Assembly (NCBI RefSeq): GCF_045037415.1
Contig: NZ_CP173438.1
Reading direction: 5' to 3' (one strand)
Length of the DNA stretch: 64,000 nt
Origin: Escherichia coli
GTDB taxonomy: Bacteria > Pseudomonadota > Gammaproteobacteria > Enterobacterales > Enterobacteriaceae
A model generated the notes under the pieces. The model searched no databases. It had not been told where the DNA came from and was given only the letters and a program-made list of their open reading frames with translations. Positions 5,011 through 43,070 of the stretch are shown one piece after another. The position numbers were made by a program, and so were the translations under genes. How positions within the stretch are numbered: position 1 is the stretch's first letter; every line of letters starts with the position of its first letter.

Positions 5011-5673
5011 TTAATTGCCAGCCATCGCCTGCTGGATAATGGGAATTGGCGTCAGTAAATGCTGGCGCATTAACTCACTGGCGCGCGCGGTATCTCGCGC
5101 CAGTACCGCCGCAGTCAGGGTCTGGTGCTGATCGTGTTTATCTTCCAGCATTTCCACCGAAAGCACTGTTCGCCGCAGCCAGATAAATCGATAACGCGCT
5201 GCCAGATCAAACAACCGTTCACGCATTTGCAGCAAATAGTAAGAACCACAGCCCGCCACAATTGCAGTATGAAACGCCTGATGACGCAGATCCCACTCAT
5301 CAAGCATTTTCTCACTGGCGTCACAGGCCTCAAGCTTACTGAGCAGATGCGCTTTTGCGAGAACGTCTGCCTCCCATTCATCGCCACCGCGGGCAATCGC
5401 CAGACTCACCAGCATCGCTTCCATATTGGCGCGGGCGTCGAAAATATCGAGCAGCTCCTGCTCTGACATAGACGCCACCCGATACCCTTTTTGATTCACC
5501 ACCGTGACCAGTCGTTCTGCCACCAGTTGCGAAAGTGCTTCCCGCAACGGCCCAACGCCAAGTGCATAACGCGATGTCAGCAAACTCATCCGTAATTTTT
5601 CATCCGGCTGAAAATTGCCGCGAATAATATCGTTCTTCAGCCAGCGATAGCCATCCAGAGAGGTAATGGTCAT
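5011..5673 (-). CDS. csiR: CsiR (GabC), GntR-family repressor of the csiD-gab operon
   Basis: ORF 5011..5691; start placed at MTITSLDGYRWLKNDIIRGNF... to give 220 aa. Confidence 0.9.
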   Translation of the reverse strand: MTITSLDGYRWLKNDIIRGNFQPDEKLRMSLLTSRYALGVGPLREALSQLVAERLVTVVNQKGYRVASMSEQELLDIFDARANMEAMLVSLAIARGGDEWEADVLAKAHLLSKLEACDASEKMLDEWDLRHQAFHTAIVAGCGSYYLLQMRERLFDLAARYRFIWLRRTVLSVEMLEDKHDQHQTLTAAVLARDTARASELMRQHLLTPIPIIQQAMAGN

Positions 5674-5693
5674 GGTGTGACTCCTGATCATTA

Positions 5694-7094
5694 TCAGCGC
5701 GTATTATGAATGGGTGTTTTTTGCCACATTATCAGCTTTTTCCAGCGAGCCATAATTGGCACGGTACAGATAATCCCAATCGCTAATAAGCCGGTGGAGA
5801 TCACTTCTAACTGTTGCGCCGGGCGGAATAGCATCACTACCAACACAAAGGTAATAAAGCCGATGACCAGCCAGGTGAGCCACGGATAAAGCCACATCCG
5901 CAGGCGAATTTCGCTTCCTTCTGCTCGCAGAATTTTGCGCATCCGCAATTGTGAAACGGCGATGACTAAATAAACCAGCAGGGCGATAGCGCCGGAGCTG
6001 TCGATCAGAAATTTAAACACCTTCGCAGGCGCGTAATAGTTCACCACCACCGTTAAGAATGCCGCGCTGGTGGAGAGTAACACCGCTACGTACGGGGTTT
6101 TACTGCGGTTGATTTTACCCATTACCGCGGGAGCATCACCGCGACGGCTTAAGGAGTAGAGCATCCTGGAAGCGGTATACAGCGCCGAGTTCAGGCAACT
6201 GGTTACGGAAAGTAATATCACGCAGTCCATGATTAATTTCGCATGAGGAATATTGAGCAATTCCAGAACCGAGCGATAAGAACCAACGGCTTTCAGCCCT
6301 GGCATATTCCACGGGATTAATGCAACAACGACAAAAATAGAACACAAATAGAAAATAGAGATACGCCAGATAACCGAGTTGGTGGCGCGAACAATATGTT
6401 TTTCCGGCGTGTCGGATTCCGCGGCGGCAATGGTGACAATTTCTGCGCCCATAAACGAGAACATGGTGATCAACATCGCGCTTAATACCGCACCGAAGCC
6501 GTTGGGCATAAAGCCGCCGCTATCCCACAATCTTGAAATCCCGCTCACGTCGGCATACGGGTAAAAACCGCTAATTGCGACGGCACCAAGGAAAATAAAG
6601 GCCAGGATAGCGATGACTTTACACAGCGCCAGCCAGAACTCAAATTCGCCGTAGTTTTTAACGCTTAATAAATTACTGCCGGTTAAGGCGAGGGTAATGA
6701 CGAGGGAAAATAACCAGATGGGAATGCCTGGAACCCATGAGTGCAGGATCATGGCGGCGATGTTGGCTTCAAGTGGGATAACCAGTACCCAAAACCACCA
6801 GTACAACCAGCCGATGGTATAGCCCGCCCAGCGGCCAATGGCTTTATCGGCATAGGTGGAAAACGAACCGGTATCGGGCGTGGCAACCGCCATTTCCGCC
6901 AACATCCGCATAATCATAACCACCAGTAATCCGGCGAACAGATAGGCCAGTAATACCGCCGGGCCCGCTTCGGCGATGGCGACGCTGGAACCGACAAACA
7001 GACTTGCGCCGATAACACCGGCAATAGACAACATGGTGACGTGGCGTGACTTCAGCCCGCCGCCTAACTCATGTGGTTGCGATGATTGCCCCAT
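5694..7094 (-). CDS. gabP: GabP, gamma-aminobutyrate permease (APC family)
   Basis: The track ORF is N-terminally extended; start placed at MGQSSQPHELGGGLKSRHVTMLSIAGVIGASLF... to give 466 aa. Confidence 0.95.
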   Translation of the reverse strand: MGQSSQPHELGGGLKSRHVTMLSIAGVIGASLFVGSSVAIAEAGPAVLLAYLFAGLLVVMIMRMLAEMAVATPDTGSFSTYADKAIGRWAGYTIGWLYWWFWVLVIPLEANIAAMILHSWVPGIPIWLFSLVITLALTGSNLLSVKNYGEFEFWLALCKVIAILAFIFLGAVAISGFYPYADVSGISRLWDSGGFMPNGFGAVLSAMLITMFSFMGAEIVTIAAAESDTPEKHIVRATNSVIWRISIFYLCSIFVVVALIPWNMPGLKAVGSYRSVLELLNIPHAKLIMDCVILLSVTSCLNSALYTASRMLYSLSRRGDAPAVMGKINRSKTPYVAVLLSTSAAFLTVVVNYYAPAKVFKFLIDSSGAIALLVYLVIAVSQLRMRKILRAEGSEIRLRMWLYPWLTWLVIGFITFVLVVMLFRPAQQLEVISTGLLAIGIICTVPIMARWKKLIMWQKTPIHNTR

Positions 7095-7182
7095 CCTGAA
7101 TCCTCTCGAAAGTGTGTCACTTGGGAGAGCGCCCCGACATTTCCCGCGTCGGGTCACGCGTTTAATTGTTATTGGTTCTTTT

Positions 7183-7323
7183 TGCCGGAGAGCGGCTCCG
7201 CCTTATCCGGCCGACATAGATTTATTCCTGTTCACGTACAGATTGTCGGATGCGGCGTAAACGCCTTATCCGACCTGGATTCTCGTAGGCCGGACAAGCC
7301 GCAAAGCGTCGCCTCCGGCATGG
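7183..7323. repeat. REP/BIME cluster: three repetitive extragenic palindromic units between gabT and gabP
   Basis: GCCGGAGAGCGGCTCCGCCTTATCCGGCC, GTCGGATGCGGCGTAAACGCCTTATCCGACC and an inverted GGCCGGACAAGCCGCAAAGCGTCGCCTCCGGC copy, all matching the enterobacterial REP family. Confidence 0.75.
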
Positions 7324-7330
7324 TGCGGTG

Positions 7331-8611
7331 CTACAGCTTCGCCTCAGCAAAACACTGGCTGATGATCTCCAGACCCTGACGGATCTGAGCGTCCTCAATG
7401 GTGAGCGGTACAAGGATGCGCAGCACGTTGTAATACGGGCCGCAGGAGAGAAGAATCAGACCCTTATCGCGGGCGCGTGCCACGATCTCGGCGGTGAGTT
7501 TTGCGTCCGGTTTGCTGTGATCGCCATCTTCAAACAGCTCGATGGCGATCATCGCCCCCAGACCGCGTACGTCGCCGATCTCCGGGTGTTTTTCGGCTAT
7601 CGCCAGCAATCCGTCTTTCAGCTTCTGCCCCAGAACGTTGGCTTTTTGCAGCAGATTTTCCTGCTCGAACACCTTCAACACTTCCAGCGCCGCTACGCAG
7701 GCAATCGGGTTACCGGCATAGGTGCCACCCAGTCCGCCCGGTGCGACGGCGTCCATCACTTCCGCGCGCCCGGTGACGCCCGCCAGCGGGAAACCGCCTG
7801 CGATCGATTTCGCAAAGGTGGTGAGATCTGGTGCCACGCCCATTTGCTCCATCGCAAACAGCGTGCCGGTACGCCCTGCGCCGCTCTGCACTTCATCGGC
7901 AATCAGCATGATCCCGTGCTCGTCACACAGCGCGCGTAAACGCTGCATAAAGGCTGGCGTCGCGGCGTAGAAACCGCCTTCGCCCTGAACGGGCTCAATC
8001 ACGATGGCGGCGATATCTTCCGGCGCGGCGTCATTTTTGAAGATCCGGTGGATGCTGGCGATAGCGTCATCCTCGCTTATGCCGTGCAGCGGGCAAGGAT
8101 AAAGCGCGCGATAAACATGACCCGGCATCAGCCCCATGCCCGCAGAGTACGGATTCACCTTGCCGGTCAGCGCCAGCGTGTAATGCGTGCGCCCGTGATA
8201 CGCACCGCTAAAGGCGATAGTACCGCTACGTTTAGTGGCGGCGCGGGCGATTTTCACCGCATTTTCCACCGCTTCGGAACCGGTCGTAACCAGCAGAGTT
8301 TTCTTGGCAAAATCGCCCGGCACCTTCTGATTCATAATCTCGCACAGCTCCAGATACGGCTCGTAGGCCAGCACCTGGAAGCAGGTGTGCGACAGTTTTT
8401 TCAATTGCGCTTCCACCGCCGCAACCACTTTCGGATGCAGGTGCCCGGTATTGAGCACCGCAATCCCGCCCGCGAAATCAAGATACTCACGGCCTTCAAC
8501 GTCCCACACCCGGCAGTTTTCCGCGCGGTCAGCGAAAATCGGGTGAATTTGCCCAACGCCACGGGGAATCGCCTGACTGCGGCGCTGCATTAACTCTTTA
8601 TTGCTGATCAT
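7331..8611 (-). CDS. gabT: GabT, 4-aminobutyrate aminotransferase (PLP-dependent)
   Basis: ORF 7331..8617; translation ...ISNKELMQRRSQAIPRGVGQIHPIFADRAENCRVWDVEGREYLDFAGGIAVLNTGH...; start taken at the second Met for 426 aa. Confidence 0.95.
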   Translation of the reverse strand: MISNKELMQRRSQAIPRGVGQIHPIFADRAENCRVWDVEGREYLDFAGGIAVLNTGHLHPKVVAAVEAQLKKLSHTCFQVLAYEPYLELCEIMNQKVPGDFAKKTLLVTTGSEAVENAVKIARAATKRSGTIAFSGAYHGRTHYTLALTGKVNPYSAGMGLMPGHVYRALYPCPLHGISEDDAIASIHRIFKNDAAPEDIAAIVIEPVQGEGGFYAATPAFMQRLRALCDEHGIMLIADEVQSGAGRTGTLFAMEQMGVAPDLTTFAKSIAGGFPLAGVTGRAEVMDAVAPGGLGGTYAGNPIACVAALEVLKVFEQENLLQKANVLGQKLKDGLLAIAEKHPEIGDVRGLGAMIAIELFEDGDHSKPDAKLTAEIVARARDKGLILLSCGPYYNVLRILVPLTIEDAQIRQGLEIISQCFAEAKL

Positions 8612-8624
8612 TCGCATTCTCCAG

Positions 8625-10073
8625 TTAAAGACCGATGCACATATATTTGATTTCTAAGTAATCTTCGATGCCATACTTCGAACCTTCACGACCCAGACCC
8701 GAGGCTTTAATGCCGCCGAACGGGGCCACTTCATTGGAAATAATGCCGGTGTTGATGCCGATGATGCCGTACTCCAGTGCTTCGCCCACGCGGAAGACGC
8801 GGCTTAAATCACGGGCGTAGAAATAGGCTGCAAGTCCAAATTCGGTGTCATTGGCTTGCGCAATCACATCGGCTTCATCTTTAAAACGGAACAGCGGGGC
8901 GAGGGGGCCAAACGTCTCTTCTTTCGACACTTTGGCGTTAGCCGGAACGTCTACCAGAATGGTCGGCTGGAAGAAGTTACCGCCGCGTTCATGTGCTTTA
9001 CCGCCGCAAACCACGCGCGCGCCTTTCTCCAGCGCATCAGCAATATGCTCTTCCACTTTTGCTACCGCTTTTTCATCGATCAACGGCCCGATGGTGACGC
9101 CTTTCTCCAGCCCGTCGCCGATGTGCAGTTTGCTCACCGCCTGCTGCAATTTTTCGGCAAAGCGGTCATACACGCTGTCCTGCACATACAGGCGGTTGGC
9201 GCAGACGCAGGTTTGCCCGGCGTTACGGAATTTCGAGGCCAGCGCGCCTTCCACGGCTTTATCGAGATCGGCATCGTCAAAGACAATAAACGGTGCGTTG
9301 CCGCCCAGCTCCAGCGACACTTTTTTGATGTCTTTCGCGCACTGTTCCATTAACTGACGGCCAATTTCGGTCGAGCCGGTAAACGACAGCTTGCGCACCA
9401 GCGGGTTGCTGGTCAGTTCGTTACCGACCGCGCCCGCCGAACCGGTGACCACGTTAAACACGCCAGCCGGAACGCCCGCGCGAATCGCCAGTTCTGCCAG
9501 CGCCAGCGCAGAGAACGGCGTCTGACTGGCGGGCTTCAGCACCATGGTGCAGCCAGCCGCCAGCGCCGGACCAGCTTTACGGGTAATCATCGCCGCCGGG
9601 AAGTTCCATGGCGTGATAGCCGCGGTGACGCCAATCGGCTGCTTGATCACAATCAGGCGTTTATCGGCCTGATGACCGGGAATGGTGTCGCCATAAATAC
9701 GTTTGCCTTCTTCAGCAAACCACTCAATAAATGAGGCGGCGTAGCTGATTTCGCCTTTCGCTTCAGCCAGTGGTTTGCCCTGTTCGAGGGTCATCAGGCG
9801 CGCTAAATCGTCCTGATGCTCCATCATTAAATTGAACCAGTTGCGCAGAATGTTGGCGCGTTCTTTGGCAGTGAGCGCACGCCAGGCGGGCAGGGCGCGG
9901 CTGGCGGCGTCGATAGCGGCGCGGGTTTCATCAGCGCCCATTTTCGGCACGCTACCCAGCTTGTCGCCGTTCGCCGGATTGGTGACGTCGATGACCTCGC
10001 CATTGTTGGCGTCCAGCCATTCCCCGTTAATCAACGCCTGCTGGCGGAATAAGTTACTGTCGTTAAGTTTCAT
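8625..10073 (-). CDS. gabD: GabD, NADP-dependent succinate-semialdehyde dehydrogenase
   Basis: 482-aa ORF MKLNDSNLFRQQALINGEWLDANNGEVIDVTNPANGDKLG...; aldehyde dehydrogenase family. Confidence 0.95.
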   Translation of the reverse strand: MKLNDSNLFRQQALINGEWLDANNGEVIDVTNPANGDKLGSVPKMGADETRAAIDAASRALPAWRALTAKERANILRNWFNLMMEHQDDLARLMTLEQGKPLAEAKGEISYAASFIEWFAEEGKRIYGDTIPGHQADKRLIVIKQPIGVTAAITPWNFPAAMITRKAGPALAAGCTMVLKPASQTPFSALALAELAIRAGVPAGVFNVVTGSAGAVGNELTSNPLVRKLSFTGSTEIGRQLMEQCAKDIKKVSLELGGNAPFIVFDDADLDKAVEGALASKFRNAGQTCVCANRLYVQDSVYDRFAEKLQQAVSKLHIGDGLEKGVTIGPLIDEKAVAKVEEHIADALEKGARVVCGGKAHERGGNFFQPTILVDVPANAKVSKEETFGPLAPLFRFKDEADVIAQANDTEFGLAAYFYARDLSRVFRVGEALEYGIIGINTGIISNEVAPFGGIKASGLGREGSKYGIEDYLEIKYMCIGL

Positions 10074-42627: not shown

Positions 42628-42747
42628 TGCCTGGCGGCCGTAGCGCGGTGGTCCCACCTGACCCCATGCCGAACTCAGAAGTGAAACGCCGTAGCGCCGA
42701 TGGTAGTGTGGGGTCTCCCCATGCGAGAGTAGGGAACTGCCAGGCAT
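42628..42747 (+). rRNA. rrfG: 5S ribosomal RNA
   Basis: TGCCTGGCGGCCGTAGCGCGGTGGTCCCACCTGACCCCATGCCGAACTCAGAAG...GGGAACTGCCAGGCAT; 120 nt. Confidence 0.97.
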
Positions 42748-42758
42748 CAAATTAAGCG

Positions 42759-42790
42759 AAAGGCCCAGTCGGAAGACTGGGCCTTTTTGC
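42759..42790 (+). terminator. rRNA operon terminator
   Basis: AGGCCCAGTC-GGAA-GACTGGGCCT hairpin followed by TTTTTG, directly after the 5S gene. Confidence 0.8.
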
Positions 42791-43070
42791 ATATGTGCGG
42801 AATAAATGCCGGATGCGACGCTGGCGCGTCTTATACTCCCACATAAGCCAGATTCAACAGCGAATACGTCTTCCCCAAATTGCCCACTTCCATACTTCCT
42901 CCTTACCAGAAATCTATCCTTAAGCTCCTTAATAACCATTTTCCTGCTAACTAAATTCATGGTTAAGGTTGTATAATGATGCGCAACAAATGTATAACAT
43001 TTTCTTTACCAAAAAAAATAAACAAAAGCGACCGACAAAAGCATCGGATTACGGCAGGAGACATAATGGC

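Follow-up and report, generated by a model that had tools for sequence, protein, structure and literature searches.

A composite REP/BIME cluster in the gabT-gabP spacer of Escherichia coli and its possible role in the gab transcript

The window analysed here, i.e. the whole 64-kb stretch of Escherichia coli DNA, harbours the genes gabD, gabT, gabP and csiR in a colinear arrangement, as derived from the list of open reading frames and a profile search, with lhgO lying beyond gabD. All five genes passed the NCBIfam equivalog cut-off, and RefSeq genomes, near-identical E. coli included, annotate them alike. The features considered below are the following, the scores and identities of the REP units being those of an alignment to the REP consensus.

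5011-5691, minus strand: csiR
5694-7094, minus strand: gabP
7095-7330: gabT-gabP spacer, 236 bp
7096-7165, minus strand: two-hairpin gabP leader, immediately preceding the gabP ATG at 7094
7183-7215, plus strand: REP unit C, TGCCGGAGAGCGGCTCCGCCTTATCCGGCCGAC (score 38, 28 of 35 positions identical)
7216-7244: spacer between units C and B, 29 nt
7245-7278, plus strand: REP unit B, GTCGGATGCGGCGTAAACGCCTTATCCGACCTGG (score 48, 29 of 34 positions identical)
7279-7284: tail-to-tail linker between units A and B, 6 nt
7285-7320, minus strand: REP unit A, TGCCGGAGGCGACGCTTTGCGGCTTGTCCGGCCTAC on the mRNA strand (score 37, 27 of 35 positions identical)
7331-7333, minus strand: gabT stop codon TAG
7331-8611, minus strand: gabT
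8625-10073, minus strand: gabD
beyond gabD, minus strand: lhgO
42630-42745: 5S rRNA gene
42808-42835, plus strand: truncated z1-type REP, TGCCGGATGCGACGCTGGCGCGTCTTAT, past the 5S rRNA gene with its terminator

The length of 236 bp given for the gabT-gabP spacer in the preliminary description of this DNA proved exact, the K-12 counterpart being 237 bp long. The gabP ORF in the program-made list begins earlier, at a GTG at 7157; because the GABA permease profile match begins at residue 22 of this longer ORF and the RefSeq start is the ATG at 7094, the spacer was taken as 7095-7330. Three ORFs listed within the spacer region (6976-7260 and 7086-7379 on the plus strand, 7222-7413 on the minus strand) were set aside because of their overlap with repeats and with genes that are well supported. 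When 451 bp spanning the cluster were used as a query, they matched 5,425 of the 5,426 complete E. coli genomes, SK1144 being 99.8% identical, and the K-12 RefSeq record lists no REP features over the gabT-gabP stretch.

The published E. coli REP consensus GCCGGATGCGGCGTGAACGCCTTATCCGGCCTAC (quoted in PMC12306157) served as the reference, to which the spacer was aligned in either orientation. The aligned parts were 7184-7215 for unit C, 7245-7278 for unit B and 7285-7319 for unit A. The three REP-like units which the preliminary description had placed within 7183-7323, and had proposed to align in this way, were recovered with scores of 37-48, and the similarity was beyond chance for all three: when the whole window was shuffled 30 times with its dinucleotides preserved, no score exceeded 30, the best one reached, and scores of 26 or above arose at 0.4 per shuffle. 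The 14-nt tail motif taken alone gave 5 matches vs 3.6 expected, which is not significant, with units A, B and C as the three best. Unit B is a canonical high-copy y-type unit with the AA/GC internal mismatch, unit C is y-like, and unit A combines a y-like stem with a z1-like inner part, scoring 39 against z1, 37 against y and 22 against z2, the z1 and z2 sequences used being what we take to be the consensus. Close copies of unit B occur at least 40 times per E. coli genome, with medians of 4 for unit A and 2 for unit C. All three units are extragenic, inside the intergenic spacer; no tandem repeats were found in the 64-kb window, and A, B and C form no tandem array here. The spacer units almost certainly belong to the E. 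coli REP (palindromic unit) family, and a REP/BIME cluster is an already known, indeed long-known, kind of element, the same cluster being present in K-12.

The sole REP-derived family in Rfam, naRNA4 (RF02564), which stems from REP325, matched unit B with 40.1 bits (E 8e-6) and units A and C more weakly, all of them below the 59.5-bit gathering threshold. Such sub-threshold matches could be read as a hint that the spacer gives rise to a naRNA-like, REP-derived HU-binding small RNA. However, scores of 40.1 bits at most reflect REP similarity only, and the chromosome-compaction model of naRNA4 was not reproduced (bioRxiv 10.64898/2026.03.23.713779), so that a small RNA of this kind is very improbable.

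The arrangement of the units departs from the alternating orientation which had been suggested for them. On the plus strand, C and B run head-to-tail and share the direct repeat CGCCTTATCCGRCC, with A alone inverted; the scores in the plus and the opposite orientation are 48 vs 24 for B and 38 vs 22 for C. In mRNA sense the order is thus A forward, B reverse and C reverse, i.e. A and B constitute a tail-to-tail inverted pair and C is oriented like B. Inverted pairing of the BIME type is accordingly found in A+B, and regular alternation across the cluster is not, B and C being direct repeats. The mRNA reads from the gabT stop codon TAG through 11 nt, unit A, 6 nt, unit B, 29 nt, unit C, ~20 A-rich nt and the 70-nt gabP leader to the gabP ATG, the 11 nt separating the gabT stop codon from the stem of unit A, which opens at the 12th nt. 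In agreement with the description of E. coli REPs and BIMEs (Stern 1984; Gilson/Bachellier; PMC3333891), the gab units are extragenic imperfect palindromes of 30-35 nt which match the consensus and have an internal stem mismatch, with the GTAG/CTAC tail intact in unit A. Also in keeping with it, A and B are inverted relative to each other across a short linker, and strains differ in the number of tandem copies. Unlike typical members, units B and C bear degenerate tails, A is a hybrid of y and z1, and C does not alternate with B.

[quoted passage not shown] Both regular classes were rejected for A+B: the 6-nt linker comprises neither an L linker nor an IHF consensus, as BIME-1 would have, and no unit matches z2 best, although the short linker and tandem amplification of BIME-2 are present. 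Since the pair fails both definitions, the atypical BIMEs are the closest class, and its z1-like and y content, its short linker and its 1 to ~16 copies fit that class.

The preliminary description had also pointed out that clusters of this kind are known to bind gyrase or IHF, and such binding could act at the DNA level by setting the local supercoiling or nucleoid structure. The part concerning IHF was not borne out: no match to the IHF consensus WATCAANNNNTTR with one mismatch or fewer occurs anywhere in the spacer, the 6-nt linker between A and B is too short for an IHF site, and there is no long L linker, and hence the IHF/BIME-1 reading was rejected. Gyrase binding to the y-type unit, in turn, is possible, because gyrase cleavage sites, which are enriched in BIME-2, fall preferentially in y-type REPs (PMC6379681), of which B is a canonical example; the binding is documented for BIME-2, however, and A+B, lacking a z2 unit, is not one. 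Furthermore, gabT and gabP are absent from the text of the gyrase-map supplement (a weak negative), and REP325 was without measurable effect on chromosome compaction (bioRxiv 10.64898/2026.03.23.713779). A DNA-level function of the cluster is consequently regarded as quite unlikely.

The tails of the units differ in their state of preservation. The CTAC/GTAG tetranucleotide is intact in unit A (GTAG at 7285-7288 on the plus strand), while the tail of unit B has degenerated to CTGG (CCAG in mRNA sense) and that of unit C to CGAC (GTCG in mRNA sense). GTAG is present in the internal B copies of the multi-copy arrays of other strains, and in C of Citrobacter. The TnpA_REP protein needs the GTAG tetranucleotide to bind and cleave, and it also requires the internal AA/GC stem mismatch seen in unit B (PMC3333891). 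Only unit A retains GTAG, and units B and C look like immobile relics in this strain. The locus resembles the REPIN/RAYT system in that the inverted pairs A/C and A/B are able to form one long hairpin and in that it is amplified, a behaviour attributed to TnpA_REP or recombination; it differs in having kept the GTAG required for TnpA_REP binding in unit A only.

At the RNA level, all three units are predicted to form hairpins, as expected of REPs, which are imperfect palindromes of 30-40 nt whose hairpin has an internal mismatch. Hairpin B (-18.8 kcal/mol, z -4.7) displays the textbook 2x2 AA/GC mismatch, hairpin C follows with -16.3 kcal/mol (z -2.0), and hairpin A is the weakest of the three here (-15.2 kcal/mol, z -1.05). 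In K-12, unit A is present as its commoner allele, which has GACGCTGCGCGTC as the inner stem and reaches -20.3 kcal/mol (z -3.0). When the whole spacer is folded as one (z -5.1), A pairs with C around the hairpin of B, because A and C are inverted copies of each other.

Elsewhere in the 64-kb window a single REP-like sequence was detected, at 42808-42835. The preliminary description had pointed to a partial REP-like sequence past the rRNA terminator at about this position, and it is indeed a z1-type unit with a score of 51 vs a shuffle maximum of 33. Its start lies 63 nt beyond the 5S rRNA gene, and it breaks off within its 3' arm (...CGTCTTAT|ACTCCC), the tail being missing, and K-12 shares the identical truncation point. 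The terminator hairpin in front of it (42746-42800) has the stem GGCCCAGTCGGAAGACTGGGCC here vs GGCCATCCTGACGGATGGCC in K-12 with nearly identical flanks, and the downstream 220 bp are only ~88% identical to most E. coli genomes. The difference looks like allelic exchange between the tails of rrn operons.

Within E. coli, the REP allele occupies the gabT-gabP gap in about 4,044 of the 5,426 complete genomes, and the three-unit layout is identical in the 9 strains sampled. In STO_Bone2 and FDAARGOS_1297 the upper stem of unit B carries a compensatory change from G-C to A-T. The clinical isolate STO_Bone2, which has this A-T variant, also has gabP annotated as a pseudogene with an internal stop. 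The 29-nt spacer between C and B is conserved across all REP-bearing Escherichia alleles. A junction from B to A, which is specific to multi-copy arrays, was found in 21 of the 5,426 genomes; E. coli XJ34 has four A+B pairs and then C, its spacer being 509 bp long, and the divergent 'E. coli' lineage SCPM-O-B-8794 possesses A plus an internally deleted B. Another 1,304 complete genomes (~24%), e.g. E. coli 2003-3014, contain an unrelated 310-bp spacer with no REP, the core of which is a G/C-rich, near-perfect palindrome of ~170 nt (GGGAGAGGGTTAGGGTGAGGGG...; RNA fold z -7.6). Part of this palindrome is found again elsewhere, the median being 3 places per genome, and it may resemble the 'box C' repeat. 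As about a quarter of the complete genomes carry no REP between gabT and gabP, the cluster is dispensable.

The comparison was extended to other species by means of GTDB species representatives. One A+B pair is present in this strain and K-12 as well as in E. whittamii, two in E. albertii and three in Escherichia sp. E1V33, while Escherichia sp. MOD1-EC7003 contains 15.7 copies of the 95-bp A+B unit in a spacer of 1,603 bp. The comparison of spacer length and REP copy number across strains, which had been put forward as a check, thus revealed variation in both, with 0, ~0.5, 1, 2, 3, 4 and ~16 copies. Outside Escherichia the spacer measures 115-209 bp and A+B is absent. By contrast, most Citrobacter species, S. 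enterica arizonae/diarizonae and a Klebsiella MAG possess an ortholog of unit C (GTAGGCCGGATAAGGCGGAGCCGCCATCCGGCA) at the same position as in Escherichia, immediately upstream of CAATAACAAT. Across genera, 93.9% of the stem cells of the unit C orthologs are paired; no double compensatory changes were seen and the pairing is no better than in shuffles, so that the conservation of unit C could reflect descent or conversion rather than selection.

Since the ortholog of C extends beyond Escherichia while A+B is limited to this genus, the cluster is composite: unit C is an old solitary REP, and A+B a younger, Escherichia-specific pair that amplifies in tandem. The description of the locus as a REP/BIME cluster accordingly stands as to family identity but not as to a single homogeneous cluster, an amplifiable BIME pair having been found next to an older solitary REP. 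The element would have arrived, and would vary, as a repeat spread by REP-specific recombination or replication slippage rather than in the role of a dedicated regulator.

Two further observations were made in the course of this comparison. Pseudocitrobacter faecalis DSM 27453 encodes a GabT 98% identical to that of E. coli and has the E. coli-type 310-bp spacer, which suggests that the gab region was transferred recently or that the assembly is mislabelled or contaminated. In addition, REP-free spacers such as those of Citrobacter sp. R56 and Pluralibacter gergoviae share the motif GTTGCTAA(C/G)GGAATGAT(G/A)ACGATGCAGTAAA, which includes a 5-codon mini-ORF (M-M/I-T-M-Q).

The units may be neutral passengers, i.e. 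selfish or hitch-hiking REPs in a tolerant intercistronic gap, with no selected effect on gab expression. With a quarter of E. coli genomes REP-free and a copy number polymorphism of 0 to ~16, this reading stays credible, and it agrees with the loss of GTAG in B and C, the degraded inner stem of A compared with K-12, the 115-155 bp spacers with which other genera manage and the lack of significant covariation in unit C. Nevertheless, unit C is at the same position and identical at 28 of 30 bases when Escherichia and Citrobacter are compared, amid a neighbouring spacer that is unalignable; both E. coli alleles put a strong hairpin between gabT and gabP; and at other loci REP hairpins, when transcribed, exert effects that can be measured. 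A purely neutral cluster is thus a serious minority view, to which we assign somewhat less weight than to an effect on the relative expression of gabT and gabP.

The region between the cluster and gabP has features of its own. In hairpin 1 of the gabP leader (CCCGAC...GUCGGG), three base pairs covary among Escherichia, Citrobacter, Pluralibacter and Hafnia; hairpin 2 is invariant, its CUCUC pairing with the Shine-Dalgarno sequence GAGAG, and the loop GCGGGAA is invariant too. The leader module of ~56 nt is missing in Salmonella, C. amalonaticus, C. portucalensis and a Klebsiella MAG, and in the genomes devoid of it CAATAACAATAA abuts GAGGT directly. No Rfam family matched the leader. The hairpin pair may be an uncharacterised and apparently undescribed translational control element.

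Turning to the possible action of the REP cluster, the csiD-lhgO-gabDTP operon is documented (PMC6265302). No sigma-70-like promoter was detected on either strand of the spacer, nor was an intrinsic terminator on its sense strand, the only terminator-like match lying on the antisense strand inside the gabP leader. Because the cluster is situated inside this operon and the spacer lacks such a promoter or terminator, it is presumably transcribed as part of the polycistronic mRNA, and its action would be at the RNA level, as hairpins in the csiD-lhgO-gabDTP transcript. GC-rich hairpins would block 3'-to-5' exonucleases, and gabT-proximal mRNA that ends or is cut downstream would for this reason be trimmed back to the hairpins and persist. 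In the structured region, part of the transcription would also be lost ahead of gabP, probably with the help of Rho, and gabT would on balance be expressed above gabP.

The preliminary description had suggested that the cluster could modulate the gabT:gabP ratio, and among the mechanisms considered here this one has the best support by analogy. The scheme is modelled on REP325, located between yjdM and yjdN, where the upstream mRNA was found to be stabilised and the downstream gene attenuated ~8-10 fold, partly via Rho, and where a multi-unit REP cluster likewise lies inside an operon between co-oriented genes; there both roles, upstream stabiliser and partial Rho-dependent attenuator, have been measured, although unit number and sequences differ from those of the gab cluster (bioRxiv 10.64898/2026.03.23.713779). 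According to the same preprint, REP-separated tandem gene pairs are upstream-biased genome-wide, the more so for canonical REPs, and REPs have been described as exonuclease-resistant 3' ends of Rho-terminated transcripts (PMC6061677). A literature search found no transcript, half-life or protein measurement for the gabT-gabP REP locus, and gabT and gabP are absent from the main text of the REP preprint and from the supplements of the RepRanger, gyrase-map and 3'-end-mapping papers. The REP hairpins between malE and malF, as reportedly observed by Newbury et al. in 1987, shield the upstream mRNA from 3' exonucleases and thereby bring about differential expression; they resemble the gab units in standing between the cistrons of one operon, albeit a different one. 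On the strength of the REP325 data, the upstream bias of REP-separated pairs and the REP-defined resistant 3' ends, a dual role is favoured, in which the cluster would be a stabiliser and attenuator raising gabT relative to gabP; by analogy with these systems, we hold this role to be a tentative proposal with a chance slightly short of even.

The position of unit A admits another effect, which is compatible with that dual role. REPs starting less than 16 nt past a stop codon are reported to stall terminating ribosomes (Liang 2015, as relayed in PMC12306157). With the stem of unit A beginning 12 nt past the stop codon of gabT, a terminating ribosome would run into the hairpin and stall, and rescue by trans-translation would lower the amount of GabT. 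The gap of 11 nt in this strain, and of 11-12 nt in all A-bearing Escherichia alleles, lies within the limit relayed from that work, and unit A in this respect resembles the stop-codon-proximal REPs of Liang, Rudd & Deutscher (2015). On the other hand, unit A forms the weakest hairpin in this strain, and in Citrobacter and Salmonella the nearest REP is farther from the stop codon, so that any such effect would be confined to Escherichia. A translational brake on gabT is therefore considered rather unlikely. The explanation as a whole, i.e. a two-layer REP cluster acting as a stabiliser and attenuator at the RNA level, the functional steps of which we infer, appears moderately probable.

No repeats of E. 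coli are better known than REPs and BIMEs, and the gab cluster matters little by itself. The locus does, however, provide a natural allelic series of 0, 1, 2, 3, 4 and ~16 BIME copies plus an unrelated palindrome allele, in which the downstream gabP leader remains identical, and it thereby offers a clean test case for the effect of REP copy number in operons. A more far-reaching idea, speculative and unlikely as it stands, is that the gabT-gabP gap is a natural tunable expression dial, the alleles of which, together with the gabP leader that would sequester the Shine-Dalgarno sequence, set a lineage-specific gabT:gabP ratio. If that were true, the uptake of GABA and 5-aminovalerate would be adjusted post-transcriptionally, and differently among Escherichia lineages.
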